Shown piece by piece: positions 4,967 to 25,673 of a stretch of 64,000 nt of DNA (positions are counted from its first letter, which is position 1; every line of letters begins with the position of its first letter). The stretch is from the NCBI GenBank assembly GCA_039587395.1, contig JBDHIQ010000003.1, forward strand, positions 22,582 through 86,581, read 5' to 3'. The notes under the pieces were generated by a model. It did no database searches, was not told the origin of the DNA, and saw nothing but the letters and a program-made list of their open reading frames with translations. The stretch is from Gemmatimonadota bacterium. GTDB lineage: Bacteria; Gemmatimonadota; Gemmatimonadetes; Palauibacterales; Palauibacteraceae. Position numbers and translations under genes: made by a program.

Positions 4967-4999
4967 CTTCCGTCGCTCTATGTCTTCGTATGCGCTCTA

Positions 5000-5872
5000 C
5001 TACGCGCTCATCCGCTCGCCAGTCTGCACAGCCCCTTCCGAATCCGCAGATCCGACCGTGAACTGTGCGCCCTCCACCCACACGATTGCATTGGTAGGAC
5101 ACCTTGCGGTCGCCGCCGGATCGGCCAGCTCGTTCTTCGAGTAGTCAATCACGGGCAGTCCGTCCACCATTTCGATCAGACCGGGCGCCGCATCCACCGC
5201 GCACCGGCCACAGGCGTTGCAGGCGACGCGGCACACCATCTCCGCCTCGTCACCCTCCAGCATGGTCCTGCACTGGACGATCAGCTGTTGCTCCAGCGGC
5301 ATCAACACGAACAGGTCAAGCGGGCACGCCTCGACACAGTCGTTACAGCCCGTGCACAGCTCGGGGTCCACCACCGGCAGCTCGACGGCGTTCATGCGGA
5401 TGGCGTCGAAATCGCAGACCACGGCACAGTCCGCCAGACCCACACATCCCCAGGCACAGCCCTTTCCGCCGCCACTGACCGCTACGGCGGCGCCGCAGCT
5501 GCCGATCCCGTGGTAATTCGCCTTCCGCGTGGCTACATCCGAGCCGCCCGCGCACAGCAGGCGCGCCACCTTCTTGTTTGCCTCGCCCGCATCCACACCC
5601 AAGAAGCCGGCGATGATGTGGACGTCCGCCTCTCCCAGCACGGTGCATTCGGCGGGCGCCACGTCGCCGCTCACCGCCAGCTCGGCGAACGCGCGGCAAC
5701 CGGCCTGCCCGCAGGCCCCGCAATTGGCCCCTGGCAGCAGATCCGAAACCGTATCGATCCGCGGATCCTCCCACACCTTCAGCTTGCTGTTGGCCAGGGC
5801 AATCAGTGTGCCGAACGTCAGACCGACCCCGCCCAGAATGGCGACTGAAACCAGGATGCCGTCGAGTTCCAT
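5000..5872 (-). CDS. RnfB-like membrane-anchored iron-sulfur protein (orphan; no other rnf genes in window)
   Basis: 290 aa. It has an N-terminal TM helix, the LPGANCGACGQAGC cluster motif typical of RnfB, and two 4Fe-4S ferredoxin-type Cys motifs (CTGCNDCVEACP, CNACGRCAVDAAP). It sits 28 nt upstream of the PFOR start on the same strand. Confidence 0.75.
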   Translation of the reverse strand: MELDGILVSVAILGGVGLTFGTLIALANSKLKVWEDPRIDTVSDLLPGANCGACGQAGCRAFAELAVSGDVAPAECTVLGEADVHIIAGFLGVDAGEANKKVARLLCAGGSDVATRKANYHGIGSCGAAVAVSGGGKGCAWGCVGLADCAVVCDFDAIRMNAVELPVVDPELCTGCNDCVEACPLDLFVLMPLEQQLIVQCRTMLEGDEAEMVCRVACNACGRCAVDAAPGLIEMVDGLPVIDYSKNELADPAATARCPTNAIVWVEGAQFTVGSADSEGAVQTGERMSA

Positions 5873-5884
5873 GGAGATCCCCGG

Positions 5885-7048
5885 CTACAGGTCGCTAAGG
5901 TCCGCTTGCTGGATCAGCCAGGCCGCCAGCAGATCCACGTCGGAGGCCGGCCCGGCCGGAGGCGCCGCGGGTGCTGCCGCGGTCGGTCCTGCCGAGGCGG
6001 CCGCGAGGGCGGTGAGCATCTTCAGCTCCTGCTGCTGCTGAAACGCCGTGACCGATCCCAGATCCCGTCTGGGTGCTTCATCCGGCAGGAAGCTGACCTC
6101 CAGCCGCCCGAGTGCCTCATCGCCACCGGGCTCGTGCACGAACCGGCCGGCCGTCTCCGGCAGGACCGCGGCGATGGCCGGTCCCGCCTGCTCAGCCATG
6201 GCACGCACGTCATTCGGATCGCCGGTCTGCATGACGAATACGCCCGGCGTGATGAGCCGGACCAGCGGCGCCGGGGGCGCCTGGCCGCTCACCGCGAGGG
6301 CGATCTTCTGTCCGCCATCCAGGAACTCCGCCAGGCCGCCCGCATGCAGGTCGGCCCCATTGACTTCCACGACCAGCGGCGGGGCGATCTCTCTCTCTTT
6401 CCCATTCCAGCGGTGGAACGGGAACGCCTCCATCATCGGCTCGTGCTGCTCGGCCACGTAGCGGCCGGATCGCGCGAGCTCGAAAACCCTGGCGGCACCG
6501 AAGATCCGCCCGCACTCGGCCAGGGCGGCTGCCACCTGCCCTTGCAGGTCACCGCCGGCCGGTACCTGCACCCGGTGCACCTCGGCTCCCCTGGCCATGA
6601 CCGCCGACAGCGTCTCGAACGCCCGGCGCATCGGGACCAGCTCCGCCTCACTGATCGACTCGCTGTCCCCGATGATCTCCGTCAGCCGGGCAACGTCGAT
6701 CCTGCCGGCTGCAAACGGGCCGAGCTCGCTCGCCATCCGCCCCGAACCGTCATCGTCCCGGGTCTCGTGCGCCTCCAGGTAGCCCCGCACCTGGTCCACG
6801 GTCACGGCCAGGCTGGAGTGGAACGCTTCACGCGACGGCGCCAGCGCCTCGAGCAGCGCGTCGACCGCCTCTGGACCTGCCTTGCCCTCCTCGGAAGCTG
6901 TGGCGGCGGCTGTCTCCCCCCCGGCCGTCTCCGTGGACTCCCCGGTGGCCTCTTCCTGCGCCGTATCCACGGCAGCGTCCTCGACGGCGGTCGCGACCTC
7001 GGCCGCGTCCCCCGGAGCCTCGCGGGGCTCGTCGGGCTCAGACTGCAT
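5885..7048 (-). CDS. Conserved hypothetical protein (acidic disordered N-terminus, Ala/Pro-rich C-terminus), no recognisable domain
   Basis: 387-aa ORF. Its composition looks protein-like, unlike the R-rich antisense ORF 5906..7336. It is wedged between korB and the rnfB-like gene with small gaps and overlaps the korB stop by 11 nt. The start is uncertain; internal Met codons could serve. Confidence 0.55.
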   Translation of the reverse strand: MQSEPDEPREAPGDAAEVATAVEDAAVDTAQEEATGESTETAGGETAAATASEEGKAGPEAVDALLEALAPSREAFHSSLAVTVDQVRGYLEAHETRDDDGSGRMASELGPFAAGRIDVARLTEIIGDSESISEAELVPMRRAFETLSAVMARGAEVHRVQVPAGGDLQGQVAAALAECGRIFGAARVFELARSGRYVAEQHEPMMEAFPFHRWNGKEREIAPPLVVEVNGADLHAGGLAEFLDGGQKIALAVSGQAPPAPLVRLITPGVFVMQTGDPNDVRAMAEQAGPAIAAVLPETAGRFVHEPGGDEALGRLEVSFLPDEAPRRDLGSVTAFQQQQELKMLTALAAASAGPTAAAPAAPPAGPASDVDLLAAWLIQQADLSDL

Positions 7049-7991
7049 AGCGGTCGAACTCCTGATTCAGGATGTCGATCTTCTCTTGCGCGGTATACGC
7101 CGGCAGGCCGCGCGTCTCTTCGTACCTCGGATTCGCTTCGTCGCGGAAGAAGACACCCAGACGAATCCGCTCGTCCGGCTCGGCATACCGCCGGGCCGCA
7201 TCGATGTCTTTGGGATCGTGCCGTCTCCGGTTCGTATAGATCTTCTCGAGCGCCGGCACGACGATACCCTGCTCGTGCTCCAGCAACTCGACCAGGTCCG
7301 GGTCACGCATGTAGTTCAGGAACACGTCGTCCGTGAACTTCGGACAGCGCTGGAGAATCCGGACGAACGCGAATCCGCGGTGCGCGTACGCGGCCTCTAG
7401 GGTCGCGTACAGATGCGCCGGGATCCACTCGGCCGTCTGGGCCACGAAGGACGCGTTCGTCACGCCCAGCGTAGCCTCCAGCGGGTTCAGCGCGGGGAGA
7501 TAGCTCCCGTACGGCTGCGTGTTAGTCGAATGGCCTTGCGGCGTCGTCGGCGACGTCTGGTTCTTCGTCAGGCCGTATACGGCGTTGTCCAGCATCAGCG
7601 CGACCATGTCCACGTTGTAGCGGATGGCGTGAATCCAGTGGCCGGCTCCGATCGAAACGCAGTCCCCATCGCCCATCACTGCAAAGACGTTCAGATCCGG
7701 TCGGTTCAGCTTGACCCCCGTCGCTACGGGCAACGCACGGCCGTGCAGGCCGTGGAAGCCATACGCGTTCACGTAGTGCGGGAATCGGCTCGAGCATCCG
7801 ATGCCGGACACGAACACGGTGTTCTCCGGAGTGAGTCCCTGGGAGACCATCAGCCGTTGCACGGAGGCCAGAACCGAGTGGTCGCCGCAGCCGGGACACC
7901 AGCGAGCCTGCGCCTTCTCGAAGTCCGCCATGCTGTAGTCCCGCTCCTCCTCCTGGGACATCCAGAGAAGCGAGCAGCCGCTCGCGCTCAT
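7038..7991 (-). CDS. korB: 2-oxoacid:ferredoxin oxidoreductase beta subunit (TPP-binding), KorB/OorB type
   Basis: 317 aa. It has the WCPGCGDHSV motif, the TPP-binding GDGD region and C-terminal homology to KorB/PorB. The start overlaps the korA stop (ATGA coupling). Confidence 0.9.
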   Translation of the reverse strand: MSASGCSLLWMSQEEERDYSMADFEKAQARWCPGCGDHSVLASVQRLMVSQGLTPENTVFVSGIGCSSRFPHYVNAYGFHGLHGRALPVATGVKLNRPDLNVFAVMGDGDCVSIGAGHWIHAIRYNVDMVALMLDNAVYGLTKNQTSPTTPQGHSTNTQPYGSYLPALNPLEATLGVTNASFVAQTAEWIPAHLYATLEAAYAHRGFAFVRILQRCPKFTDDVFLNYMRDPDLVELLEHEQGIVVPALEKIYTNRRRHDPKDIDAARRYAEPDERIRLGVFFRDEANPRYEETRGLPAYTAQEKIDILNQEFDRYAV

Positions 7992-9895
7992 CGGGCACCT
8001 CCTTCGGGCATATTGGCTCGAATCACGTCGTGTATGACCCCGGGCCGGAGGGGCTCGCCGAGCACACGCGTCCAGCAGTCAATGTCCACCAGCGTATGGG
8101 CTCTGAGCAGCCACGCCAGTTGCCCACGGCGCCGGTTCTCATCCGTGATGAACGGGGAGCTCGGGTCGTCGCTGTAATTGATCTCCACCGTCATCACCTT
8201 CTTGAACCGCTTGAAGATCTCCTTGAGTCCGGGCTCGAGCGGAGAGAGGAAGGTCAGGTGCAACGAGGAAACCGAGTGACCTTCCGCCCGCGCTCTGTCC
8301 ACCGCCTCTTCGATCGCACCCCTGGTGCTTCCCCACCCCACGACGAGCAGGTCGCCTGATTCGTCACCCTTCACCGTCGGGGGTCGGAGCGTCTGCTGAA
8401 GCACGGCAATCTTCCGGCTCCGCATGTCCGCGCCCCGTTGGTTGATGTCCGAAGCATACGCGACTTTGCTCCATTCGTCATGGGCCAGACCGGTCGCGGT
8501 GAACTGGCCGCCGGGCTGCCCCGGAATGAAGCGCTGCGACAGGCCCGTTTGCTCATCCCAATCGTACGGCGGCTTGTCCTCTGACACCGGGCTGAGGTCG
8601 GGCGCCGGAGCGTGCCACGACGCGTCCGCCTCGGGCCGCGGGAATGGCGTCACGCCGGTGGCCAGGTTGGCATCGGACAGCACGATCACCACGGTGCGGA
8701 ACGTTTCCGCTATCCGCCGTGCGGTGATCATGATGTGGAAGCACTCCTCGATGGTCGCCGGCGCCACCACGACGTGAGGCGCGTCTCCCGGCTGCCCGAA
8801 GATGGCCGCCAGTAGATCCGACTGCTCCACTTTGGTCGGCAAGCCGGTGCTGGGACCTCCGCGCTGGACGTCGATGACGACCAGCGGGACCTCGATCATG
8901 ATGGCCAGACCCAGAAACTCGGTCTTCAGCGCCATCCCCGGCCCGGAGGTGATGGTGAACGCCGTCTTGCCGGAATAGGAGGCTCCGATCGACACGCCTG
9001 CGGCCGCGATCTCATCCTCCGCCTGGTGCACGACTCCGCCGTACCGCTCGAATACTTCTCCCAGGTGGTGGGATACCGAGGTGGCCGGCGTGATGGGGTA
9101 CATCGCGGCCAACTCCATCCCGGCGGCGATGGCCCCGAGCGCCACGGCCTGGTTGCCGTTCATGACGACCATGTCCTGGGCGGCGGGCTTGCGCGGCACC
9201 TGGACGCGAAAGTCCAGGTTCTCTTCCGCCCACCGCACCCCCAGCTCCAGAAGCGCCACGTTGATCTCCGTGACCTTCGGCGCCTTTCGCCGGAACGCGT
9301 GCGCGATCTGCTCGCGCACCAGGTCCAGGTCCAGGTCGTGGAGGTGGGCCAGGAGCCCCAGCACGAACATGTTCTTCCCGCGCTGCGGGTCATCCACGAT
9401 GGCCAGGCACTCCTCCTCCATCGGAACTTCTATGATCCGGTAGTCGAAGCCCGACAGCTCCTCCATGACCTCGCGCCACTCCTGCTGGATGGACTCGTCG
9501 TCGTGGGTCTTCCACTTGTTCTCCAGCAGGATGATGGCGTCGGGCTCCAACGCGTCCAGCTGGTGCCGCATGGACAGAACCTGCTCGTTGAACGCCACGC
9601 TCAGGTTTGTGCGATCGCCCCAGTTGGTGACCGGCTCCGTGCCGATCCGGATCCGGTTGCCGCTGGCCCCGGCCGGCAACCGCGCCGGCGGCTGAATCTC
9701 GGCAGGGATGATCTCCACCGTCCACACGCCGTTGCCCATCTTGGCGCACACGGCCCCGAAGATCTGGCTGCACTTCTGCGCGCCCTCTCCGGAGTCCGAC
9801 ACGACCTCCACCGTCCACAGGTCCCGCTTGACTGTCCGGGGCGCCTTGCCGCGCGTCTCTGGAGCTGCCGCCGGTGTCCTGGTTTTTGTCGCCAT
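7988..9895 (-). CDS. korA: 2-oxoacid:ferredoxin oxidoreductase alpha subunit with fused N-terminal gamma domain (KorA of two-subunit KorAB type)
   Basis: 635 aa. The N-terminal gamma-type motif is VVSDSGEGAQKC...; the alpha-subunit core follows (YPITPATS, GVVHQAEDEIAAAG). True ATG at 9895-9893. Confidence 0.9.
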   Translation of the reverse strand: MATKTRTPAAAPETRGKAPRTVKRDLWTVEVVSDSGEGAQKCSQIFGAVCAKMGNGVWTVEIIPAEIQPPARLPAGASGNRIRIGTEPVTNWGDRTNLSVAFNEQVLSMRHQLDALEPDAIILLENKWKTHDDESIQQEWREVMEELSGFDYRIIEVPMEEECLAIVDDPQRGKNMFVLGLLAHLHDLDLDLVREQIAHAFRRKAPKVTEINVALLELGVRWAEENLDFRVQVPRKPAAQDMVVMNGNQAVALGAIAAGMELAAMYPITPATSVSHHLGEVFERYGGVVHQAEDEIAAAGVSIGASYSGKTAFTITSGPGMALKTEFLGLAIMIEVPLVVIDVQRGGPSTGLPTKVEQSDLLAAIFGQPGDAPHVVVAPATIEECFHIMITARRIAETFRTVVIVLSDANLATGVTPFPRPEADASWHAPAPDLSPVSEDKPPYDWDEQTGLSQRFIPGQPGGQFTATGLAHDEWSKVAYASDINQRGADMRSRKIAVLQQTLRPPTVKGDESGDLLVVGWGSTRGAIEEAVDRARAEGHSVSSLHLTFLSPLEPGLKEIFKRFKKVMTVEINYSDDPSSPFITDENRRRGQLAWLLRAHTLVDIDCWTRVLGEPLRPGVIHDVIRANMPEGGAR

Positions 9896-14090: not shown

Positions 14091-14168
14091 TATCCCGTTG
14101 TCCCATCTATATAGAGTATTGGTCACCATGCTTCGGCTTCCGGTTCCCCTCTCTGCTCTCCTCCCGCC

Positions 14169-16376: not shown

Positions 16377-17399
16377 TCACGGCGTGATCACCCACCGGAC
16401 TCCTTCCCCCCGCCGCAGGAGATCGAACCCGTCGTTGATGTCGTCAAGCGGCACCGATCCGCTGACCACAGGGTCCAGGCGAAGCCGTCCGGATTCTACC
16501 AGGCCCAGGATCTCCGGGTACTGGCCGCCTCCGCATCCCAGGCTGCCCACCACCTCGAGCTCGTAGTACATGAGCCGGGCCGCCGACAACGAGACCGGCG
16601 CGCCGGAGTATCCAATGACACAGAGGCGCCCGCCCTTCCGGATGAGCGCAAAGGCAAGCTCGATGGTGTCCGGCTTGCCGATGACCTCGAATGCCACGTC
16701 CACGCCTCCGTCCGTCAGCTTCCGGATCTCCTTGTCCGGGCGATCGTGCTCGCTCGGGTCCAGCGTCGCCTGGGCCCCCAGCTCACGAGCCAGCTCGAGC
16801 CGCTCCCTGCTGACATCGATGGCGATCACCTTGCCCCCTGCGATGGAGGCGCACTGCACCACGTTCAGACCGACCCCACCGCACCCCACCACCGCCACGA
16901 CGTCACCGGGCCGTACCCGCCCGCGGTTCTTCACGGCGTGGTAGGGGGTGGATACGGCGTCGGCTATGACGCAGGCCTTTTCGAGCGGGAGGTCCGCCGG
17001 GACCGGCACGAGCTCGGCGGCCGGGACTTTGATGAACTCGGCGTAGGCGCCGTCCATGTCGTTCCCCGGCATCACCATGTGCTCGCAGAGGTTCTCTCGT
17101 CCGGCGCGACAGTAGCGGCACCGTCCGCAGGACAGGACCGCCGGGATCAGCACCCGATCTCCGGGAACGGCCGTTTCGACTCCCTCTCCCACGGTGTGGA
17201 CGACGCCCGCAGCCTCGTGCCCCAGGATCAGCGGCGGTGGCTTGAACGTGCGCACTCCGTGATCCAGATAGTGCAGATCCGTATGGCACATTCCGCAGCC
17301 CGCTACCCTCACGAGCGCCTCGCCCGTCCCCGGCCTGGGCGTTTCGACCTCCGTGACCTCCAGCGGCTTCCCGGAGCCATGAAACACGGCTGCTTTCAT
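16377..17399 (-). CDS. Zn-dependent medium-chain dehydrogenase/reductase (alcohol dehydrogenase family); Had-like by context
   Basis: ATG at 17399 (MKAAVFHGSGKPLEV...). It has the GCGMCHTDLH zinc motif and the GCGGVGLNVVQ Rossmann motif. The ORF track start further upstream is a non-ATG extension. Confidence 0.85.
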   Translation of the reverse strand: MKAAVFHGSGKPLEVTEVETPRPGTGEALVRVAGCGMCHTDLHYLDHGVRTFKPPPLILGHEAAGVVHTVGEGVETAVPGDRVLIPAVLSCGRCRYCRAGRENLCEHMVMPGNDMDGAYAEFIKVPAAELVPVPADLPLEKACVIADAVSTPYHAVKNRGRVRPGDVVAVVGCGGVGLNVVQCASIAGGKVIAIDVSRERLELARELGAQATLDPSEHDRPDKEIRKLTDGGVDVAFEVIGKPDTIELAFALIRKGGRLCVIGYSGAPVSLSAARLMYYELEVVGSLGCGGGQYPEILGLVESGRLRLDPVVSGSVPLDDINDGFDLLRRGEGVRWVITP

Positions 17400-17620
17400 C
17401 TTGGTTTCCTTGTGTAGATGACGCGAAACAGGGTCGTCGCGGCCGCACACGATTCGCAGAATTCCTGCAGATCATCCGCAGACGGTGGCTCGAGCCGGAC
17501 TTCCAGACCCAGCGACTCGTACAGCTCCACTGCTTCCTGCAGTCGTGGTGGCGCGCCGACGAATCGCCGCGTCCAGCCCTGGTCGTCCGGTCCATCGGGT
17601 GATAACCCGTTCCCCGGCAT
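17396..17620 (-). CDS. Small hypothetical protein (74-82 aa) between the second ATPase gene and the dehydrogenase gene
   Basis: ORF 17396..17644. The internal ATG at 17620 is preceded by GGAAGGG with a 6-nt spacer. The stop overlaps the dehydrogenase start (ATGA). Composition is protein-like, but there is no recognisable domain and only 3 Cys. Confidence 0.35.
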   Translation of the reverse strand: MPGNGLSPDGPDDQGWTRRFVGAPPRLQEAVELYESLGLEVRLEPPSADDLQEFCESCAAATTLFRVIYTRKPR

Positions 17621-17654
17621 GATCCGCCCTTCCACTATGCCCATGCCGCTTGCC

Positions 17655-18479
17655 CTACGCCGCTTCGAGGATTTCGAGCCGTCGCCGCGCCAGCACGGCG
17701 GCTCCGATCGCGCCGCTGAACTGCACCAACTCGCCGGGAGGCACGTTGACGCCCCCGTGCAGGTGCTCGCGCAGCAGCATCACCATGGTGGGGAAACGGT
17801 TGATGCCTCCGACAAGGGTGAATTCCGGCTCCATCTTGACCCGCTTCATGAGGCGAACCGACTTCTCGATCAGCGACTCCATGGCCCCCCGCATGATCTC
17901 CCCGGGTGCACGCTCCTGGCTCACGTGATTGATGACCTCGGACTCGGCGAACACCGCGCACACCCCTGAGATAGGCACGGACTCCTCGCACTCTTCCACC
18001 AGGGTGCCGATCTCTTCCGTCCCGTACCCCAGGTAGCGAGCTGTCTTCTCCAGGAAGGCGCCTGTGCCGGCCGCGCACTTGTCGTTCAAACGGAAGGTGC
18101 GAACCCGCCCCCGCCCGTCCAGGCGCATGGCCTTCATGGTCTGTCCGCCCACGTCCAGCACGGTGCGCGTGCCGGGGAAGAACGCCCGCGCGCCCCACGC
18201 GTGCGCCGTCAGATCCGTGACCTGGATGTCCCGGAACGACACCCGGTGACGCCCGTAGCCCGTGGTGGCCAGGTACACGATATCCGAACGCTCTGCCGTC
18301 GAGCCGGTCAGAGCCTGGTCCAGTGCCTGGCTGGCTGCCTCCTCCAGGCGATAGCCCGTCGGACACATGCCCGTCGCCAGCAACTCGCCGGATTCCCCTA
18401 GCAGGGCCGCCTTGGTGTACGTGGAGCCGACATCGATGCCGGCCGTGAGGTGTCCGTCGCCACGGTTGGTCCGACTCAT
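17655..18479 (-). CDS. BadF/BadG/BcrA/BcrD/HgdC-family ATPase, second paralog (BcrD/BadG-like), 274 aa
   Basis: Internal ATG ([27 protein letters not shown]) overlaps the stop of the upstream ATPase gene. It has the ASKHA-fold signature DVGSTxTK and the cluster-ligand region [10 protein letters not shown]. The upstream part of the 381-aa track ORF is an R/G-rich artefact. Confidence 0.85.
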
Positions 18480-19294
18480 GCCTCCTCCTTCCCCACCGCC
18501 GCGGGCTGACCCGCACCCTTCGCCCGCTCGAGAGCGAACAAGGCCGCACCGAGCGCCCCCATGAAATGGGATTCCTCGCTCACGTTCAGTTCCGTTCCGA
18601 CTATCTCGTTCATGACGTCCACCATTGCCTGGTTCTTTGCCACACCACCGGTGAACGTCGTTTCGCCTTCGATTCCCACACGCCGCAACAGACCGAAGGA
18701 GCGGCTCCCGATGGAGCGGTGCACTCCCAGCAGTATGTCTTCCACCGATTTGCCACGGGCCAGCCACGACAGCACTTCGGACTCCGCGAACACCGTGCAC
18801 GTCGTGCTGATCACCACCGGCGTCTTTCCGCGCTGTGTCGTTGGCCCGAGCTCATCCAGTTCCAGCCCGAGCGCGGCGGCGGCAGACTGAAGGAAGCGGC
18901 CTGTCCCCGCTGCGCATTTGTCGTTCATGCAGAAGTCGAGGACCTGCCCACCCTTCTCGATGCTGATGGCCTTCGTGTCCTGTCCCCCCATGTCCAGCAC
19001 GGTGCGCGTGTCCGGGAACATCCGGGCCGCGCCCCTGGCGTGGCAGACAATCTCCGTCACCTGGGCATCCCCGAACTCGACCTTGTAGCGGCCGTAGCCG
19101 GTCCCGATGACGAAGCCCACATCCGACGTCCGGATCCCCCCGTCCTCCAGCGCTGCCTGAAACGCGTTCTCGGCAGCCGCCACGACGTTGGCGCCGGTAT
19201 CGATCAGGTCTCGCCCTACGATCGCTCCGGACTCATCGACTATCACGGCCTTGGTCTGCGTGGATCCGACGTCCACTCCGCCGGCATACACCAT
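18476..19294 (-). CDS. BadF/BadG/BcrA/BcrD/HgdC-family ATPase, first paralog (BcrA/BadF-position but short), about 272 aa
   Basis: ATG at 19294 ([17 protein letters not shown]) is preceded by GAGGAGGA with a 5-6-nt spacer. It has the [10 protein letters not shown] motif. The track ORF starts at a GTG at 19315. Confidence 0.85.
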
Positions 19295-19326
19295 CGCATC
19301 CTCCTCGAGCTGCACCTGCGTTCTGC

Positions 19327-20691
19327 CTATGATTCGGCGGCGGCGGAGCGGTTCTTCCGCAGCTTTCGCGATTGGAGGCCCTCGAAGAACGCATCAATGC
19401 GGTTCTTGAGCTGCGCCTCGGAGACCACACGCTTGTCCATCATGTCGGACTCGATGTAGAGCGCCGCCACATCCCGGGCCTCGAGCACCACGCGCCGGCT
19501 GGCGGCCAGACCCGTCGACACGGTCCGGCAGGACTTCACCGGGTGGTATACCACCCCTTCCACATCGTAGTCATCGATCGCCTGGAGCAGGGCCCGGTCC
19601 GGGAACATGAGGCTGTCCGTGGCCTCGATGACTCCGCGCAGCACCCCTTCGGCCAGGCTCTCGATCGGCCGGTCCAGATCGTACTCGAAGTCCAGGTTGA
19701 GCCCGCCGGAGGCGAACCAGGTGTAGGTGGACGTCGCGAACGTGCCACCCCACTCAGAGAACAACTCGTAGAACCTCCGGAAGATCGGGTAGCAGGGCAC
19801 TCCGACGAATACCAGGCGGTGGGACTCGCCCCCCGAACCGTGCGGCCCCATCCCTGCGGCAACCCGCGCCTCCATCTCCTCCACGAGATCCTCGAAGTAG
19901 CGTGCGCCCTCCTCCGTGCCGCGGAGCGCGTTGGCCACTCCCAGGTAGATGGTCCCCTCCAGCATTGCATCGAACGGCGCCGGGCTGTTCCGGTTGAGCT
20001 CCAGCAGCGCTCTCCACGCTCTCCCCATCTGGTTGGTCAGGCGCAGAACCTCACGGCACCGGTCTATGTCGAAAGACACTCCGCTGACCTGCTCACACAC
20101 ACCGATGAGCTCCCGGATCTGACCTTCCACGTAGGTGCGGTCTGCCTCGAACCGGGCCGAGTCGCCAATTGTCCGGACCGCATCGGCAACCTCCGTGTGT
20201 GCACCGTTGGGGCCGATCAACGGCACCGGCACCCTTGATCCCGGCACGTCCATCGTGAACACCGGGTCCTGGTACATGCGGCCCCAGATTTCCGCCCATT
20301 TCACGTAGGTGCTGCAAGCGTTGGTGAGAACCGACAGGCCGGGCGGCGGGATCCGACCCATCGGGTGATCCCCGTTCCGGAGTTGCACGGCGTAGTCGGC
20401 CTTCACATAGCCGCAGACGTCCGGCGAGAAACCGTGATCTTCCGCCAGGTTGAGATAGTCGTCGGAGACTTTGCGCACCGCGGTCTGGAGCGAGTTGATC
20501 TCCGGGAACACGATGTTGAAGTCGAAGCAACGCAGCAGCTCCACCAGGCTCCCCATGACGAAGACATAGGCAGCCTTCTCGCCCCGTTCGGCAGCGGATG
20601 TGAGGTCGGCAAACCACTCCTGGAACAGGCGACGGCCTTCGTCTGCCCCGCGGCCATGCACGCCGGACGCCGCGGCCTTCAGTTCGGTCAT
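19327..20691 (-). CDS. 2-hydroxyacyl-CoA dehydratase / benzoyl-CoA reductase family subunit (HgdB/BcrB/BadE-like), about 454 aa
   Basis: The chosen start [10 protein letters not shown] overlaps the stop of the upstream gene. The N-terminal 70 codons of the track ORF are an R/G-rich artefact. Family assignment rests on length and on conserved blocks ([20 protein letters not shown]). Confidence 0.85.
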
Positions 20692-21914
20692 CACCACTGA
20701 CCCCCCTTCGTCACGAGCAACGGCCTGGCATCCTCGTCGGAGGGCCACGCGAACAGGACGTTCTCGACGAATGTCTCCAGCTGGATCTGCAGGTGCGTGA
20801 AGCTGGTCATCTTCTCTTCGAACTCCGTTTCGAAGTACGGAATGCCCTTCTGCTCGAGCTCCTGGGAGTAGGCCACCTGCTCGTCCAGGCCCGGCTCGCA
20901 CATCTTGGCCGCCGAGATGATTGCCGCCTCCGCATCGGAGCCCCGGATCCGCTCCAGCAGCATCTCTTCCTTCGGCTTGCGCAAATCGTGCTGCACGGGG
21001 CTGTACGAGGAGTTGTTCAGATAGGCATCGGCCAGGTTCCGCAGGGGCGGGCCCTCCAGCGGGACGTCATCGATGATCCAGCGGAGGCCGATCAGGAGAT
21101 CGTCGTCCACCACGTAGCAGAACTCTGAGATGGCCTGGAGCAGATCCAGCGGCGGCTGTTCACAGAACCCGCCTTCGAAGACGACGCGCATCTTGTCCTG
21201 TGCGTGCGCCTCGCGCATCCGGATCTGCGGCAGGAGTCTCTCCAGCAGTTCGTTGTGCTCGTCCCGCTGGATGAGGCCACCGATAGCCACCAGGGCATAG
21301 GCTTCGTCAGCCGCGATCAGCCACGGCTCGTCACGCTTGATCGCGTAGAGCTCGGCAAGGAGCTGGCGGTTGCGGTTGAACACGGCCATGGAACGCCGCA
21401 GCTCCTGGTCTGTCACGCGCCTTCCGGCAATCTCCTCTATCTCCTCCAGCACGGCGCGGTACTCCCCTTCCAGGTAGTCCAGCGCGTGGCTCGAGTTGGG
21501 ATTCTGCGGGAAGTAGAGAATGCGGGCCGGCTGCGGGAGGTTTCGCGCCCAGATCCCGGCCAGGTTGCGCGCCGCGTCGCAGATCGCGTGGGTCACGAAC
21601 AGGTCGATCACCAGACGTTCCGTGAGTGCCAGCTCGAGCGAGCTCTGGAGAATCGAGCAGATGTACGATCCGAAGTGCGAGTCGGCCTCGCGCCGCTCGA
21701 CAGCCCCGCCGCGCACCTTCACGGGCAGGAGACCCGCCGCGTGCGCCAGCTCCTCCGGGAAGTAGACCTGGAAGTGGCCCACCACTTTGCCGCCGCCCTC
21801 GCGCCACTTGCGCACCGTGGGAAACTCCACGTCCTGGACCACCTGGCGGCAGATCTTCAGGGACTCCTCCAGGTCACTGTGAGCCGGGAGGTCCAGCAGT
21901 CGATCGGGCTTCAT
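20691..21914 (-). CDS. 2-hydroxyacyl-CoA dehydratase / benzoyl-CoA reductase family subunit (HgdA/BcrC/BadD-like), 407 aa
   Basis: ATG at 21914 (MKPDRLLDL...). It carries the family-typical KVVGHFQVYFPEELAHAAGLLPV N-terminal block. Confidence 0.85.
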   Translation of the reverse strand: MKPDRLLDLPAHSDLEESLKICRQVVQDVEFPTVRKWREGGGKVVGHFQVYFPEELAHAAGLLPVKVRGGAVERREADSHFGSYICSILQSSLELALTERLVIDLFVTHAICDAARNLAGIWARNLPQPARILYFPQNPNSSHALDYLEGEYRAVLEEIEEIAGRRVTDQELRRSMAVFNRNRQLLAELYAIKRDEPWLIAADEAYALVAIGGLIQRDEHNELLERLLPQIRMREAHAQDKMRVVFEGGFCEQPPLDLLQAISEFCYVVDDDLLIGLRWIIDDVPLEGPPLRNLADAYLNNSSYSPVQHDLRKPKEEMLLERIRGSDAEAAIISAAKMCEPGLDEQVAYSQELEQKGIPYFETEFEEKMTSFTHLQIQLETFVENVLFAWPSDEDARPLLVTKGGQW

Positions 21915-21945
21915 GTCTTCAGAGTCTCCCTGCTCCCGGTGTTAC

Positions 21946-22713
21946 TCACGCGTCGCTCCAGACCGGTTCGCGCTTCTCCATGAACGCCGCCAGGCCCTCC
22001 CGGGCATCGGCGAGTCCCATGAGCTCCTCGAGATAGATCCGCTCCGCTTCGGCCAGCGCCTGTTCCAGCGGCAGACCGGCGCCCTGGACGGTCGCCCGCT
22101 TGGCAAGGGCTACAACCGGTCGGCTGAGGGAGGCCAGGTTGTTGGCGTATTCCGACACGCCTGCCTCGAACTCGTCCGCTGGAAGCAGGCGGGTGCACAG
22201 CCCACTGGCAGTCGCCTCCTCACCGGTCAGCACGCGACCGGACAGGATCAGGTCGAGGGCCCGCTGCAGACCTATCCGCCGGGGGAGAAGCGCGGCGGCA
22301 ACCGGCGGGAGGGCACCGAGCCGGATCTCGGGCTGGCCTATCTTGGCATCGGCACGCACCAGCACGATGTCGCACGCGATAGCCAGCTCACAGCCACCAC
22401 CGAGCGCCGCGCCGTTCACGGCTGCAACGACGGGCACCCGGAGTGACAGCAGCCGGCGGATCGCGCCATGAAACAGCTCAAGCATGCGCTCCACGCGGTC
22501 CGGAGTGTGATCGGCCACGTCCACGCCGGCACAGAAGGCCCTGCCCTCTCCCGTCACCACCAGGACACGGGCGTCCGCATCGTCCGCTACCTGCCCGACG
22601 GCCGCATTCAGTTCCTCCAGCATCGGGATGTGGAGGACGTTGAGCGGGGGGCGACAGAGAACGAGCCGGCGGATCCCGGCGTCGCAGTCGACTCTCAGGA
22701 ACTCGCCGCTCAC
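21946..22713 (-). CDS. Enoyl-CoA hydratase/isomerase (crotonase) about 255 aa; Dch-like by size and context
   Basis: GTG start (VSGEFLRVDCDAGIRRLVL...) overlaps the upstream stop as GTGA. It has the crotonase signature FCAGVDV...GGGCELA. The longer track ORF upstream is an R/G-rich overlap artefact. Confidence 0.8.
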   Translation of the reverse strand: MSGEFLRVDCDAGIRRLVLCRPPLNVLHIPMLEELNAAVGQVADDADARVLVVTGEGRAFCAGVDVADHTPDRVERMLELFHGAIRRLLSLRVPVVAAVNGAALGGGCELAIACDIVLVRADAKIGQPEIRLGALPPVAAALLPRRIGLQRALDLILSGRVLTGEEATASGLCTRLLPADEFEAGVSEYANNLASLSRPVVALAKRATVQGAGLPLEQALAEAERIYLEELMGLADAREGLAAFMEKREPVWSDA

Positions 22714-23813
22714 CTGGGCTCTCCCGAGCTGGCCGGCTCCCCGCTGAGGGCGGCCCCACACGCTCCGCAGTACTCGAAGCCGGCCGGTAGCCCCGGCGCG
22801 CCGCAGGCCGGACACGTGCCGACTCCCGGCCCCCACATCAGCTCGCTGGACTGTCCGGCCGCGGCCCGCTCCCGGAGCAGCCCGTAGTCCGGAGCGCGTT
22901 TCTCCACGAAAGCCTGCATGCCCTCCAGCGGCTCCCAGCAGGCGTAGTGCAGCGACAGCCAGTCCTGCGCGTGCCGGACCGTTGAATTCCAGGCCAGGTC
23001 CTTCAGGAAGTTCACCTGCTGCTTGGTGTATCGCGTGCACTCCGGGAAGGAGGCCAGGAGCTTCCCGCACAGGTCGTCCACATGCCCATCCAGCCGTGAC
23101 AGGTCGATGGCGTACCCATCCACTCCCTTCTGCGCCTTCTTGATCTGCTCCGCCGTCGCCTCTTCGACCCATTCATCCGCATGCCGAACCGACGGGACAA
23201 CCCAGTTCACCAGCCCCCAGTCGAGCGCCTTCACGGCCGGAATCGGCTCGTTCAGAAACAGGATCTCCCGGGCGCGCTTGTCACCCACGACCAGGGGAAG
23301 CCACTGGGTGGATCCGCCGCACGCTACGGAGCCCACGTGCGTGCCCACCTGCTTGATGTACGTGTGCTGCGCCATAACCGAGAGATCGCATGCCAGCTGA
23401 CTCTCGTTCCCTCCTCCCACGGCCATCCCGTTGAGGCGGGCGACGACGGGCTTGCCCGTGTTGAGGATGCTCTCGATGTATGCCCGAAACAGCGCCATGT
23501 ACTTCCAGTAGTCGCGCGGGGTCTGTACGTAGAGGTCCGCGTACTCCTTGACGTCGCCGCCGGTACAGAACGCTCTGTCCCCCGCCCCGGTGTAAATGAT
23601 CACTCCCACGCGGTCGTCAAACGACGCATCGCGAAACGCCGTCGCCAACTCCTCCAGAGCCGGAGTTGAATAGGCGTTGTAGTTATGGGGTCGGTTCAGG
23701 GTGACCCGGGCCACTCCGTCGCCCTTCTCGTACAGAATGGCCTCGAACTCGAAATCAGCGGCGGCTCGAGAGCCGAAAGCGCGCTGGTCGGATCCGTTGT
23801 CTGCCGTGTTCAT
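22710..23813 (-). CDS. Extended crotonase-fold protein (367-388 aa) with C-terminal CxxC...CxxC zinc-ribbon; Oah/BamA-like by size and context
   Basis: ATG at 23813 (MNTADNGSDQ...) lies 1 nt after the tetR stop. The track start GTG at 23876 would overlap tetR. The crotonase core is AFCTGGDVKEY...AVGGGNESQLACD. The C-terminus is CPACGAPGLPAGFEYCGACGAAL. Confidence 0.8.
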   Translation of the reverse strand: MNTADNGSDQRAFGSRAAADFEFEAILYEKGDGVARVTLNRPHNYNAYSTPALEELATAFRDASFDDRVGVIIYTGAGDRAFCTGGDVKEYADLYVQTPRDYWKYMALFRAYIESILNTGKPVVARLNGMAVGGGNESQLACDLSVMAQHTYIKQVGTHVGSVACGGSTQWLPLVVGDKRAREILFLNEPIPAVKALDWGLVNWVVPSVRHADEWVEEATAEQIKKAQKGVDGYAIDLSRLDGHVDDLCGKLLASFPECTRYTKQQVNFLKDLAWNSTVRHAQDWLSLHYACWEPLEGMQAFVEKRAPDYGLLRERAAAGQSSELMWGPGVGTCPACGAPGLPAGFEYCGACGAALSGEPASSGEPR

Positions 23814-23814
23814 G

Positions 23815-24486
23815 TCACTCACCGGTTTGAGTTGGCGGTTCGTCTTCGTAAAGGTGTGCCTGGCCCAGGAGTCCACCGATCAGGTGCTCCACGAACTCGG
23901 CTCCCAGCTCGGGCGAGCCCATGGCGCCCTCCGGATCGTACCAGCGAGCGATCCAGTTGATGGCCCCCAGAACGGCGAAGCTGGCGATCTTGGGGTCCAC
24001 GCTGCGGAACTCGCCGTCGGCCACGCCCTGCGCGATGATCTCGCGCAGCCTTCTCTCGTACCTGTCGCGCTCCTGGACGACCTCTGCCTGCCGCTCGGGG
24101 GAGAGAGCGGTCACCTCCAGGGCCAACGGCGAGCCCTCGAGCACTTCCGTCATCACTCGAACGTGCTCGCGGATCACGTGGGACAGCCGGTCGCTGGCCG
24201 TCTCGAAGCGGGCGTAGGTCTCCTCCATCACCCGCGCCAGTTCGTCCAGAGAAATCCGGTGGCACTCGAAAAGGATGGCCTCCTTGTCCGGGAAGTAGTA
24301 ATAGAGCGCCGTCTTCCGCAGGCCGAGGTTGCTGGCGATCTCCTCCAGCGTGGTCCCGTAGAAGCCCTTCTCGCGAAACGTGCGCAGCGCGGAGCCCAGG
24401 ATTTCGTCCCGGCGCCGGCGTCGCTTCTTGCGAACGTGTGGCGACGACTCTTTCAGCCGGGCCGGTTTCAAACCGCTGGATGCCAT
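23815..24486 (-). CDS. TetR/AcrR family transcriptional regulator, first gene of the operon
   Basis: ATG at 24486 (MASSGLKPARLK...). It has the HTH block GFYGTTLEEIASNLGLRKTALYYYF. Confidence 0.85.
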   Translation of the reverse strand: MASSGLKPARLKESSPHVRKKRRRRRDEILGSALRTFREKGFYGTTLEEIASNLGLRKTALYYYFPDKEAILFECHRISLDELARVMEETYARFETASDRLSHVIREHVRVMTEVLEGSPLALEVTALSPERQAEVVQERDRYERRLREIIAQGVADGEFRSVDPKIASFAVLGAINWIARWYDPEGAMGSPELGAEFVEHLIGGLLGQAHLYEDEPPTQTGE

Positions 24487-24695
24487 CGCGTGCTGTCTCC
24501 TGCGTAGAAATTTGAACGACGGGTAGAACTTTTCCTGTTGGCGGCTCCCTGTCAACACGTGGCTGCACAGAGGTCGTCTGCGCGCCCCCTGGGAAGCGCG
24601 GACGCCAATTCAAGGGGGGGGCGTCACGGGGTGTTTCGGAGTCGCGGATCTGCAACTCCCCTTCAACCGCTCGGACCGCTAGTTTGTGGCGCACT

Positions 24696-25145
24696 ATGCT
24701 CTATTCCGGAAGCTGCGAATACGCGATCCGGGCGCTCACCTTCCTGGCACAGCGCCCGACGGGCAAACTGACGTTGCTGGGCGACATCGCCGAGGCGGAG
24801 GCGATCCCGCGTGCCTTTCTGGCAAAGGTGCTCCAGGACCTGGTCCGCAAAGGGCTGCTGCGCTCGGCCCGTGGACCCACGGGCGGATACGCGCTTGCTG
24901 ACGCACCCGACAGAATCACGCTGTACGACATTCGCGACGCCGTGGACGGGACCGAGGATCTATTCCAGTGCGCGGTTGGACTGGATCCCTGCTCGGACGA
25001 AACGCCGTGCCCGCTGCACGAGACTTTCAAGCCCCTGCGGGCAGCGATAGAGCGATACCTGCGGGACACCACGATTGCTGACCTGGCTCGCGGGATGTGG
25101 GAGAAACGCGCCCTCATCGCGCAGCGTAGCCTACGGGACGGCTGA
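24696..25145 (+). CDS. Rrf2 family transcriptional regulator (BadM-like), divergent from the operon
   Basis: ATG at 24696 (MLYSGSCEYAIRALTFLA...). A C-terminal Cys triad region (CAVGLDPCSDETPCPLH) suggests Fe-S ligation. Confidence 0.85.
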   Translation: MLYSGSCEYAIRALTFLAQRPTGKLTLLGDIAEAEAIPRAFLAKVLQDLVRKGLLRSARGPTGGYALADAPDRITLYDIRDAVDGTEDLFQCAVGLDPCSDETPCPLHETFKPLRAAIERYLRDTTIADLARGMWEKRALIAQRSLRDG

Positions 25146-25253
25146 CCCCATCTAACTGCCCGGCAAGCTGTTTCTGAGCCGTGCCCCGGGACCCCTTGTA
25201 GTTCTACTCGCCCCTTTTTACGATATCTTCATGAACAACTCTGACTTAGTGTC

Positions 25254-25673
25254 GTGATATCTCAGACGGCCGAGTACGCGCTAAGAGCCGTGCTCCACCT
25301 GGCACAGCACGCCGACGACATACCGGTCTCCGTCGATGCCGTGGCGGAAGCGCTGGAGATCCCGCGCAACTATCTCTCCAAGATCCTCCACACGTTGGCC
25401 AAGAGCGGTGTGCTGACTTCGCATCGTGGACCGCGCGGTGGATTCAACCTGTCGGTCCCGTCGGCCGAGCTCTGCCTGCTTGACGTGATCAACCCGTTCG
25501 ATCGCGTGAGTGAGCGCCGGCTGTGCCTGCTGGGCCGCAAGGAGTGCAGCGACGCGACACCGTGTCCGGCCCACCACCGCTGGCGGGCGGTGAGCGACCA
25601 GGTGAGCGATTTCTTCAGCGACACGACCATCGAGCAGTTCCTCGCAGAAGGCATGGGCAAGGAAGCCAACTGA
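25254..25673 (+). CDS. Rrf2 family transcriptional regulator, second tandem copy
   Basis: GTG start (ISQTAEYALRAVLHLA...). Cys residues are at CLLGRKECSDATPCPAH. Confidence 0.8.
   Translation: MISQTAEYALRAVLHLAQHADDIPVSVDAVAEALEIPRNYLSKILHTLAKSGVLTSHRGPRGGFNLSVPSAELCLLDVINPFDRVSERRLCLLGRKECSDATPCPAHHRWRAVSDQVSDFFSDTTIEQFLAEGMGKEAN

Follow-up and report, generated by a model that had tools for sequence, protein, structure and literature searches.

The closest described system to the locus analysed here is the 3-methylbenzoyl-CoA reductase MbdONQP (the MBR type of class I BCR) with its mbd cluster, known from Thauera chlorobenzoica and Azoarcus (Aromatoleum) sp. CIB (PDB 9g87, 9gai). The logic of this cluster, with its TetR repressor, has been described (PMC4424350), as have the mechanism of MBR and BCR enzymes and the three types within class I (PMC11971306). 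Other systems used for comparison are BcrCBAD with Dch, Had and Oah of Thauera aromatica (BCR type), BadDEFG of Rhodopseudomonas palustris, BzdNOPQ (the BZD type of class I BCR, PDB 8S02) and the 2-hydroxyisocaproyl-CoA dehydratase HadBC with HadI (PDB 3O3M, 4EHT). The 64,000-nucleotide stretch of a Gemmatimonadota genome that was analysed (the window) contains an operon which, read by homology, is complete and tightly packed for oxygen-independent breaking of aromatic rings. Judged by its sequence, it probably codes for a class I (ATP-dependent) aryl-CoA reductase of the MBR type and for three enzymes that take over its product. A first-pass annotation had suggested a "new" or "transplanted" system; the operon, a relative of the known 3-methylbenzoyl-CoA reductase pathway, is widespread in uncultured bacteria and so adds a further member to a known system, not a new kind.

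Nine co-directional genes lie on the minus strand at 16377-24486, as had been annotated, and their Pfam domains agree with that description. The TetR-family regulator (23815..24486, 223 aa, TetR_N and TetR_C_24) is followed after a spacer of 1 nt by the Oah-position crotonase with a C-terminal extension (22710..23813, 367 aa), which shares a GTGA overlap with the Dch-position crotonase (21946..22713, 255 aa from a GTG start). Next are two HGD-D family reductase subunits joined by a 1-nt overlap (TGATG), namely the MbdN/BcrC-like gamma subunit (20691..21914, 407 aa) and the MbdO/BcrB-like beta subunit (19327..20691, 454 aa). Two BcrAD_BadFG ATPases, the MbdQ-like alpha subunit (18476..19315, 279 aa from GTG) and the MbdP-like delta subunit (17655..18479, 274 aa), share an ATGA overlap, and so do the small ORF for a conserved CxxC protein (17396..17644, 74-82 aa) and the Had-position Zn-dependent MDR dehydrogenase (16377..17399, 340 aa). 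These are the four start/stop overlaps read from the sequence. The remaining intergenic gaps measure 11-34 nt, and a search inside the operon gave neither a convincing terminator nor a convincing promoter consensus. Because the alignment with the first residue of MbdQ begins at residue 8 of alpha, the true start of this subunit is likely the ATG at 19294, giving 272 aa. The JGI call for the Dch-position crotonase is 225 aa long; the 255-aa form is favoured because the NCBIfam Dch model aligns from its residue 9. For the small ORF, the start is likely at 17620 (74 aa). Reductase, hydratase, dehydrogenase and ring hydrolase are all represented, so the gene content is indeed that of an upper pathway of the anaerobic benzoyl-CoA type.

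Against PDB sequences, each reductase subunit matches its Mbd counterpart: gamma scores 526 bits to MbdN (HadC 140, BzdN 100), beta 460 bits to MbdO (HadB 111, BzdO 72), alpha 365 bits to MbdQ and delta 279 bits to MbdP. Between them, the two ATPases share 41% identity. Beta is approximately 50% identical to MbdO, 33-37% to canonical BcrB representatives and 24% to HadB. In a neighbour-joining tree with bootstraps, constructed for the beta subunit only, it groups with MbdO at 100%, inside a BCR+MBR class I superclade (99%) with the dehydratases outside. The operon's clade forms a lineage separate from proteobacterial MBR (80%). Neither of the two dehydratase-family subunits falls among the 2-hydroxyacyl-CoA dehydratases, a placement which the first-pass annotation had asked to be checked: beta is separated by the tree and both match MbdO/MbdN far better. 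For every enzyme, the best NCBIfam match is a benzoyl-CoA-pathway equivalog, with every equivalog cutoff missed. Genuine MbdO and MbdN score 221 and 230 bits on the BcrB and BcrC models, compared to 216 and 265 for the window proteins, and fall short of these cutoffs about as far, so that missing them is a trait of MBR-type enzymes. The reductase belongs to the MBR type (MbdONQP) of class I ATP-dependent aryl-CoA reductases. The Thauera-type benzoyl-CoA pathway proposed earlier is largely right in outline and partly supported: its upper-pathway gene content stands, while the reductase is not of the Thauera aromatica BcrCBAD type. It is also not "atypical": the solved MBR likewise has two ATPases of approximately 270 aa and a gamma subunit with a single cubane.

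The cofactor ligands were compared with those of BzdNOPQ. In beta, which is predicted to carry out substrate binding and catalysis, Cys93/126/388 align to BzdO Cys95/128/380, the three-cysteine catalytic cluster, and the P-E motif is kept (Glu64). Where BzdO has His131, which has been proposed as a proton relay, the window protein has Tyr129 and MbdO has Phe; relative to MbdO, beta also carries a 15-residue insertion. In gamma, Cys86/112/339 align to BzdN Cys73/100/327, and the double-cubane ligands Cys36/263/293 of BzdN are replaced by Gln49/Leu274/Tyr304, a pattern that makes gamma, by alignment, the single [4Fe-4S] type. FeS cysteine ligands and ATP-binding motifs are intact in both ATPases: alpha has a 14-residue motif (Cys134) and CTVFAESE (Cys173), delta a 14-residue motif (Cys135) and CAVFAESE (Cys174).

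The three product-processing enzymes are tied to their namesakes more loosely than the reductase. The Oah-position crotonase, a candidate 6-oxocyclohexenoyl-CoA ring hydrolase, matches TIGR03200 (dearomat_oah) best at 213.6 bits (cutoff 464), followed by MenB (165) and BadI (162). It consists of a MenB/BadI/Oah-like core with an internal insertion and a C-terminal C4 zinc ribbon (Pfam matches DUF7577/DZR); each of the 42 distinct clade homologues that were examined retains the ribbon. For the Dch-position crotonase, a candidate cyclic dienoyl-CoA hydratase, TIGR03189 (dienoyl_CoA_hyt) gives 176.7 bits (cutoff 292.5), and the generic enoyl-CoA hydratase model PRK05862 scores equally. The Had-position enzyme, a candidate 6-hydroxycyclohexenoyl-CoA dehydrogenase, reaches 266 bits on TIGR03201 (dearomat_had; cutoff 338.65, next family 220); in single-sequence phmmer searches of the PDB, Had (7quy) gives 180 bits and generic ADHs approximately 200. 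The Dch and Had assignments thus depend mainly on gene position. The earlier placement of these enzymes holds as far as Oah, Dch and Had are the best NCBIfam models, and both crotonases match benzoyl-CoA-pathway families best; it is weakened by the missed cutoffs, the Dch tie and a Had no closer than ADHs.

The small ORF has the core GWxRRF...LY...G..V...CxxC...YTR and matched no Pfam or NCBIfam model; its AF2 model (pLDDT 73) has no PDB match by fold or sequence. All 35 homologues are unnamed or hypothetical. Among 68 related loci, 56 have it after delta, and a proteobacterial contig with a beta subunit 78% identical to MbdO carries a homologue (37% identity, E 5e-13) behind its mbdP-like gene. 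The protein is a candidate accessory of MBR-type reductases or their clusters.

The regulator has a TetR_C_24 ligand domain (112 bits), and its PDB relatives include, besides MbdR (44 bits), the acyl-CoA-responsive KstR2 and FadR. It is a probable CoA-thioester-responsive repressor of the operon, judging by its ligand domain. Upstream, at 24503..24560 on the minus strand, a TTGACA hexamer precedes a degenerate inverted repeat; the two form a candidate promoter/operator, a function suggested by their sequence. The repeat, which has the form TTTGAAC-N4-GTTCAAA in relatives, is kept upstream of the TetR genes in loci L007, L010, L011, L065 and L077. Regulators of related loci are either TetR or PaaX-like (236 bits, cutoff 265).

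Downstream of the operon, the window encodes two 2-oxoacid:ferredoxin oxidoreductases and an RnfB-like protein, all on the minus strand. The KorAB-like two-subunit enzyme reported earlier was found at 7038..9895 (TIGR03710 OAFO_sf 531 bits, cutoff 483; PorB_KorB subfamily 244, slightly below the cutoff of 262), and it is the probable source of reduced ferredoxin. The RnfB-like polyferredoxin (5000..5872, 290 aa, Pfam FeS and Fer4; TIGR01944 74.8 bits, above the cutoff of 68.7) is a candidate electron carrier. In the close relative L011, KorAB-like and RnfB-like genes lie directly downstream of Had. A fused PFOR/NifJ-type oxidoreductase (2..4996, at least 1665 aa, extending past the window edge) was located via its ferredoxin motifs (Pfam POR_N, PFOR_II, POR, Fer4, TPP_enzyme_C). 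A multihaem cytochrome is present as well. These genes are further hints of a low-potential, anaerobic metabolism, although the rest of the window had earlier been said to give no other hint of an anaerobic aromatic degrader. Within the 64 kb, no aryl-CoA ligase and no small 2[4Fe-4S] ferredoxin were found. S9 peptidases are encoded on the flanks of the cluster.

Across 80 species-level loci the gene order is kept for gamma (74/74), alpha (78/78) and delta (72/72), and the neighbouring genes recur as well (Dch 56/70, Oah 40/65, Had 37/58). The same order is seen in dozens of MAGs of Gemmatimonadota, Chloroflexota, Acidobacteriota and others; all of the related genomes that were found are uncultured MAGs. 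In related Gemmatimonadota MAGs, the cluster recurs with the same flanks (MR_MLE, Rrf2, cytochrome, KorA) at 66-83% identity. GC and GC3 of the operon equal those of the flanks, GC3 being 0.80-0.87 for all larger genes and 0.67 for the small ORF. Because composition matches the flanks and the gene order recurs across MAGs, the cluster is native to the lineage and not transplanted.

Gene content, homology, conserved cofactor ligands, position in the tree and synteny were established directly; by homology, we infer activity, substrate, electron donor and regulation as follows. The nearby KorAB-like and PFOR-like oxidoreductases would generate reduced ferredoxin, whose electrons the RnfB-like protein may relay. 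Ferredoxin would reduce the [4Fe-4S] cluster bridging the alpha/delta ATPase heterodimer, and ATP hydrolysis would lower its potential. By way of the [4Fe-4S] cluster of gamma, electrons would then reach beta and its aqua-[4Fe-4S] cluster with three cysteine ligands, where benzoyl-CoA or a substituted analogue would be reduced to a cyclic conjugated dienoyl-CoA. The 255-aa crotonase would hydrate the diene, the Zn-dehydrogenase would oxidize the resulting alcohol, and the 367-aa MenB/Oah-like crotonase would open the ring hydrolytically, giving a 3-hydroxypimelyl-CoA-type product. TetR, with its acyl-CoA-type ligand domain, would repress the operon until aryl-CoA appears.

As the sole characterised relative, MbdO, is only approximately 50% identical, substrate specificity is not transferable. 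The same architecture might act on a substituted or amino-acid-derived aryl-CoA instead of benzoyl-CoA, in aromatic amino-acid catabolism of proteolytic Gemmatimonadota; candidates are benzoyl-CoA with a methyl, hydroxy, amino or halo substituent, or a compound formed in phenylacetyl-CoA metabolism. This is possible, but we consider it rather unlikely. The nearest characterised enzyme is a 3-methylbenzoyl-CoA reductase and not BcrCBAD, S9 peptidases flank the cluster, and the Oah, Dch and Had enzymes all miss the benzoyl-CoA cutoffs. Most relatives (36 of 58 loci) have a PaaX-like regulator, a type that senses aryl-CoA, and a tryptophanase/tyrosine phenol-lyase-family gene lies directly downstream in 13 of 53. 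However, the window itself has neither such a lyase nor PaaX nor a ligase, no substituent pocket can be identified from the sequence, and the MBR of Thauera chlorobenzoica also reduces benzoyl-CoA.

It is improbable that this ATP-dependent BCR/MBR-family enzyme acts on a ring system other than benzoyl or catalyses another reduction (e.g., of a bicyclic aryl-CoA that is already partly reduced, or a reductive dehalogenation or dehydroxylation), with neighbouring enzymes adapted to its product. The identity to MbdO allows a new specificity, and the beta insertion, Tyr129 and the separate clade would fit one, but the hydratase/dehydrogenase/ring-hydrolase trio suits processing of a monocyclic dienoyl-CoA, and the surroundings showed neither a carboxylase nor other genes of polycyclic pathways. 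It is most improbable that the operon encodes a 2-hydroxyacyl-CoA dehydratase with an ATP-dependent activator for amino-acid fermentation, accompanied by ordinary beta-oxidation enzymes. The HGD-D family, the name '2-hydroxyacyl-CoA dehydratase' given to many relatives at NCBI, the detectable HadB/C homologues and the Dch tie with a generic hydratase point that way; against this stand the low HadB identity and the bootstrap split from HAD-like representatives. HAD systems use one homodimeric activator, whereas the operon has two distinct ATPase genes, orthologous to MbdQ and MbdP respectively, and a MenB/Oah-like hydrolase and a Had-like MDR are foreign to known dehydratase pathways.

The preferred reading, an MBR-type aryl-CoA reductase operon, can finally be compared with the known systems. 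Like HadBC with HadI, the locus has the superfamily fold and a BcrAD_BadFG-family ATP-driven activator, but it differs in identity (24%), in its separate clade and in having two different ATPase subunits in line with the catalytic genes. With BzdNOPQ it shares the three-cysteine catalytic cluster and glutamate of beta; scores are only 72-100 bits, three of the six BzdN [8Fe-9S] ligands are absent from gamma, and Tyr replaces His131. BcrCBAD with Dch, Had and Oah provides the pathway logic, the gene content and the best NCBIfam matches, and its subunit order bcrC-B-A-D is the same as here. However, all equivalog cutoffs are missed, identity to BcrB is low, and alpha (272-279 aa) aligns to the C-terminal part only of the 432-position BcrA model. 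The mbd system is closest, with four one-to-one best subunit matches, ATPases of approximately 270 aa, a single-cubane gamma, a small CxxC ORF after delta in an mbd-type contig, regulation by a TetR-family protein and a linked 2-oxoacid:ferredoxin oxidoreductase, korAB being part of the mbd cluster. Unlike it, the window has gamma-beta-alpha-delta instead of O-N-Q-P (beta-gamma-alpha-delta, as in L090), a beta subunit diverged from MbdO, a TetR that is not an MbdR orthologue, no adjacent ligase or transporter genes, and a Gemmatimonadota host.

As described in the first-pass annotation, nine co-directional genes occupy the minus strand at 16377-24486, and ORF listing, translation and Pfam searches returned the same sizes and domains. 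A TetR regulator (TetR_N and TetR_C_24) precedes two ECH_1 crotonases in the Oah and Dch positions, the first with a C-terminal zinc-ribbon-like tail (DUF7577/DZR). These are followed by two HGD-D proteins, gamma (20691-21914) and beta (19327-20691), two BcrAD_BadFG ATPases, alpha (18476-19315) and delta (17655-18479), a small ORF (sORF, 17396-17644) and a zinc-dependent alcohol dehydrogenase (ADH_N and ADH_zinc_N) in the Had position. Read from the sequence, the Oah/Dch, gamma/beta, alpha/delta and sORF/Had junctions overlap as GTGA, TGATG, ATGA and ATGA, respectively, while the TetR and Oah genes are 1 nt apart and the other gaps measure 11-34 nt. A consensus scan inside the operon revealed no convincing internal terminator or promoter. 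Judged by its sequence, the operon encodes a true class I aryl-CoA reductase of the MBR type together with putative ring-processing enzymes, and it is native to its Gemmatimonadota lineage. The predicted activity would be an ATP-dependent two-electron reduction of benzoyl-CoA or a substituted analogue, such as the 3-methyl form, to a dienoyl-CoA.

The gene set is that of the MBR type, with two HGD-D subunits and two different BcrAD_BadFG ATPases, each best matching one subunit of the 3-methylbenzoyl-CoA reductase Mbd (PDB 9g87/9gai). In phmmer searches of the PDB, the pairs were one-to-one and reciprocal in subunit identity, with 460 bits for beta-MbdO, 526 for gamma-MbdN, 365 for alpha-MbdQ and 279 for delta-MbdP. 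The best NCBIfam match of every operon enzyme is a benzoyl-CoA-pathway equivalog (Oah, Dch, BcrC, BcrB, BcrA/BzdQ/BcrD and Had), with all scores under the curated cutoffs. On the BCR-type models TIGR02259-02263, gamma reaches 265 bits (cutoff 421), beta 216 (cutoff 487), alpha 199 (cutoff 578) and delta 133 (cutoff 313). MbdO and MbdN, whose sequences were rebuilt from printed alignments before the scan, obtain 221 and 230 bits on the BcrB and BcrC models, also below cutoff and similar to the 216 and 265 bits of beta and gamma. Because these MBR subunits score alike, falling short of the cutoffs is characteristic of the MBR type and does not speak against reductase function.

An HMMER search run exhaustively over 1.84 billion cluster representatives retrieved 108 proteins at E <= 1e-30. 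A neighbour-joining tree was constructed for the beta subunit alone, rooted on HadB, with the canonical BCR type anchored by P0146 and P0140, two representatives passing the BcrB equivalog cutoff. The beta subunit of the window lies within a Gemmatimonadota core (99% bootstrap), nested in an environmental clade (80%), which joins MbdO in 100 of 100 bootstraps. The BCR type, the MBR type and intermediates together form a superclade (99/100), apart from all representatives resembling 2-hydroxyacyl-CoA dehydratases (HAD). By the test that the first-pass annotation itself set, beta therefore lies outside the dehydratase clades in this tree. Beta is 50.5% identical to MbdO, as against 33-37% for the BcrB type and 24% for HadB.

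Two other identities were weighed for the reductase. A dehydratase of the HAD type would agree with the name '2-hydroxyacyl-CoA dehydratase' that NCBI gives to many relatives of beta, which JGI names 'benzoyl-CoA reductase subunit B'. In the same PDB searches, HadB/HadC reach 111/140 bits against beta/gamma, and the HadB/HadC equivalog models give 131/168 bits with cutoffs of 750/700. This identity is ruled out by the tree (separate clade, 99% bootstrap) and by the presence of two distinct ATPase genes in place of one homodimeric activator. For annotation this is a warning, since true subunits of the MBR type fall short of the NCBIfam BcrB/C cutoffs and many proteins of this clade carry a dehydratase name at NCBI. 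As for a BZD-type enzyme, BzdO/BzdN score 72/100 bits against beta/gamma in the PDB searches, and the bzdN/bzdO NCBIfam models 94/75 bits with cutoffs of about 450. Gamma does share ligand positions with BzdN, its Cys86/112/339 matching BzdN Cys73/100/327, but the remaining three [8Fe-9S] ligand positions (BzdN Cys36/263/293) are Gln49, Leu274 and Tyr304, of which Gln49 and Leu274 are the same in MbdN. With cysteines at only three of the six BzdN positions, gamma cannot carry a BZD-type double cubane, and the prediction for this subunit of the MBR-type enzyme is a single [4Fe-4S] cluster.

The catalytic [4Fe-4S] cluster of BzdO is bound by Cys95/128/380 (PMC11971306), with which beta Cys93/126/388 align; across the family alignment, these residues vary hardly or not at all. 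Glu64 of the P-E motif in beta is conserved and probably equivalent to BzdO Glu65. At the position of BzdO His131, beta carries Tyr129; the environmental clade has Tyr there, and MbdO and the BcrB representatives have Phe. Relative to MbdO, beta also has a 15-residue insertion around residues 152-175 (gene at 19327-20691, minus strand). Either the insertion or Tyr129 could alter proton delivery or substrate range. Both ATPases contain DVGST (the DxGxT motif) and CxVFAESE, and their cysteines are C134/C173 in alpha and C135/C174 in delta. As in the HgdC/BcrAD family, we take these motifs to form the nucleotide site and to supply, from each subunit, the two cysteines for a bridging cluster. Three cysteines in beta, three in gamma, two per ATPase and an ATP-binding motif make up the ligand set of an MBR-type enzyme.

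Downstream of ring reduction, the Oah-like protein finds its best match in TIGR03200 (213.6 bits, cutoff 464), followed by MenB (165) and BadI (162). Its core aligns to MenB, and its PDB matches are MenB-type cores only, leaving the extension and zinc ribbon without a match in the PDB. The C-terminus of this crotonase of 367 aa (22710-22800, minus strand) bears a C4 zinc ribbon, CPACGAPGLPAGFEYCGACG. The ribbon motif CxxCGAxG(I/L)Px3Fx(F/Y)CGxCG is kept in all 42 distinct homologues examined. The Dch-like protein scores 176.7 bits on TIGR03189 (cutoff 292.5), tied with the generic enoyl-CoA hydratase model PRK05862 (176.7). For the Had-like protein, TIGR03201 is the best NCBIfam match (266 bits, cutoff 338.65, next family 220), and by phmmer the solved Had structure 7quy (180 bits) falls below generic alcohol dehydrogenases at about 200. 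Because of these sub-cutoff scores, the Dch tie and a Had-like protein no closer to Had than to ordinary alcohol dehydrogenases, the three putative roles were assigned from family and position. The predicted chemistry is consistent with a hydration, oxidation of the alcohol and opening of the ring by hydrolysis, the last by an enzyme of the MenB/BadI type. MbdW/X/Y were not found in the proteobacterial mbd-like contigs L090-L092, and no aryl-CoA ligase turned up in the window when its larger ORFs were scanned with Pfam.

The 82-aa product of the sORF matches no Pfam or NCBIfam family, and its 35 database homologues are all unnamed or hypothetical. Its invariant residues are Pro25, Arg26, Leu27, Glu29, Tyr34, Leu37, Gly38, Val41, Cys55, Cys58, Tyr69, Thr70 and Arg71. 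A homologue (37% identity over 60 aa, E 5e-13) lies after an mbdP-like gene, on a contig with a beta subunit 78% identical to MbdO. Therefore, the small CxxC protein is regarded as typical of MBR-type clusters at large. The chains of the MBR PDB entries do not include it. The AF2 model shows a small beta-alpha-beta-beta unit (pLDDT 73), for which Foldseek returned nothing below E = 0.75 in the PDB, and a profile search of PDB sequences gave chance-level matches only, including FeoC at E ~0.45. In two Planctomycetota MAGs (L080, 12818-13549, and L088, 12824-13561), the sORF frame runs on into a domain of about 130 aa. By eye, this domain may be of the RidA/YjgF type, and it may reflect a fusion or an ORF-extension artefact.

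With one genome scanned for each GTDB species, 204 loci were confirmed, of which the best 80 were kept. These best 80 of 204 are all MAGs, from Gemmatimonadota, Anaerolineae/Chloroflexota, Blastocatellia/Pyrinomonadaceae, Planctomycetota, Acidimicrobiia, Actinomycetes and Clostridia, with the conserved order [PaaX or TetR]-Oah-Dch-gamma-beta-alpha-delta-sORF-Had. Counted among the best 80 of 204, and limited to loci with flank long enough for the test, gamma (74/74), alpha (78/78) and delta (72/72) are always present, followed by sORF (56/68), Dch (56/70), Oah (40/65), Had (37/58), PaaX (36/58) and TetR (7/58). In 13 of 53 related loci, a gene of the tryptophanase/tyrosine phenol-lyase family (PRK13238, 691 bits; TPL and TnaA equivalogs sub-cutoff) stands right after the operon, as in L005 (14273-17215), L007, L009, L012, L018, L024, L027, L033, L035, L039 and others. 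A hemerythrin gene usually follows the operon there as well, and sometimes one for an unassigned 328-aa protein; none of the three is present in the window. These neighbours suggest a possible connection with the breakdown of aromatic amino acids or with the handling of oxygen.

The first-pass annotation had also considered that the cluster might be transplanted. This idea was abandoned, as its composition equals that of the flanks and its synteny, flanking genes included, is common to related MAGs. The GC content of the operon is about 0.65 and GC3 in the larger genes 0.80-0.87, as in the rest of the window. The nearest relatives of beta (67-79% identity) come almost exclusively from Gemmatimonadota MAGs, and an identical protein occurs on JGI metagenome contigs carrying the same operon. 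A tblastn search of beta against the PLSDB plasmids, aimed at annotated Bcr/Mbd references, gave distant matches only (20-24% identity). The two closest relatives, L010 and L011 (beta 79% identical), have the same flanking MR_MLE, Rrf2, cytochrome and KorA genes. Therefore, the cluster is vertically held in its lineage and not a recent import.

Several genes that might relate to electron supply lie downstream of the operon on the same strand. A KorAB-like 2-oxoacid:ferredoxin oxidoreductase (7038-9895) passes TIGR03710 with 531 bits (cutoff 483), with its KorB-like beta subunit slightly under the family cutoff (244 vs 262), and is followed by an unassigned 387-aa ORF and an RnfB-like polyferredoxin (5000-5872). 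At 2-4996 on the minus strand, a gene for a fused 2-oxoacid:ferredoxin oxidoreductase of the PFOR/NifJ type, with an additional Fer4 region at the C-terminus of its product, covers at least 1665 aa and runs past the left window end. Plus-strand ORFs overlapping this gene (530-5848) have no family matches and are probably spurious. A ferredoxin-motif scan of the window found the RnfB-like and PFOR-like genes only, and no small ferredoxin. In the window, the operon is separated from KorAB by a block of three minus-strand genes, namely one for a multihaem c-type cytochrome of 712 aa whose N-terminal part has membrane helices (14169-16307), beginning 69 nt after the Had-like gene, one for an unassigned 449-aa protein (12780-14129) and one for an FG-GAP/ASPIC/TPR protein (10067-12745). 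This block is absent in L011, where KorA, KorB and the RnfB-like gene directly follow Had. It probably also separates the two in L010, which has a cytochrome homologue and KorA about 5 kb downstream of Had. Thauera has a KorAB/ferredoxin arrangement, which the KorAB-like, RnfB-like and PFOR-type genes of the window parallel.

Regarding regulation, the PDB relatives of the TetR regulator with its TetR_C_24 domain include KstR2 and FadR. Against MbdR (PDB 4UDS), a TetR-family repressor released by 3-methylbenzoyl-CoA (PMC4424350), it scores 44 bits, at about rank 21 among TetR structures, so that it resembles MbdR by functional analogy and not as an orthologue. An inverted repeat, TTTGAAC-N4-GTTCAAA, lies upstream of the TetR genes in five divergent loci (L007, L010, L011, L065 and L077). 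This candidate TetR operator differs from the MbdR site ATAC-N10-GTAT (PMC4424350). The copy in the window is degenerate, with a TTGACA hexamer on one side and the start codon of TetR on the other (24503-24560). Divergent from the operon are two tandem Rrf2-family regulators (24684-25145 and 25248-25664, plus strand), an arrangement that L001-L004 and L010/L011 share. In Rhodopseudomonas palustris, benzoate degradation is under the control of an Rrf2 regulator, BadM.

To our knowledge, work on class I benzoyl-CoA reductases has been confined almost entirely to a few Proteobacteria, either denitrifying or phototrophic. The locus shows a complete MBR-type ring-reduction module native to Gemmatimonadota, whose gene order is repeated across many uncultured phyla. 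Provided that it is active, these abundant lineages of sediment and soil would have a part in the turnover of aromatic carbon under anoxia. Three leads follow from it, i.e. the small CxxC protein with MBR-type reductases, the zinc-ribbon ring hydrolase and the candidate TetR operator. A more far-reaching reading, which seems improbable when taken as a whole, would place the window in a large and wholly uncharacterised lineage that is sister to the proteobacterial MBR and spans several phyla (MAGs of Gemmatimonadota, Chloroflexota, Acidobacteriota, Planctomycetota and Actinomycetota). Its substrate would be an amino-acid-derived aryl-CoA and not benzoate-derived benzoyl-CoA, many members would be linked to a tryptophanase/tyrosine phenol-lyase-like enzyme and hemerythrin, and the CxxC mini-protein, which the solved MBR complexes lack, would be an indispensable fifth component, for example an adaptor for electron entry, an assembly factor or a redox/O2 guard.

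In a 2024 survey, no bcr genes were detected in FCB-superphylum reference genomes, Longimicrobium terrae among them (PMC10936416). Genes of the present kind have already been annotated in metagenome surveys (PMC11704145; bioRxiv 10.1101/2025.11.25.690425). Three types of class I benzoyl-CoA reductase are distinguished, BCR, MBR and BZD (PMC11971306), and the MBR-type reductase described here is a further member of a known enzyme type.
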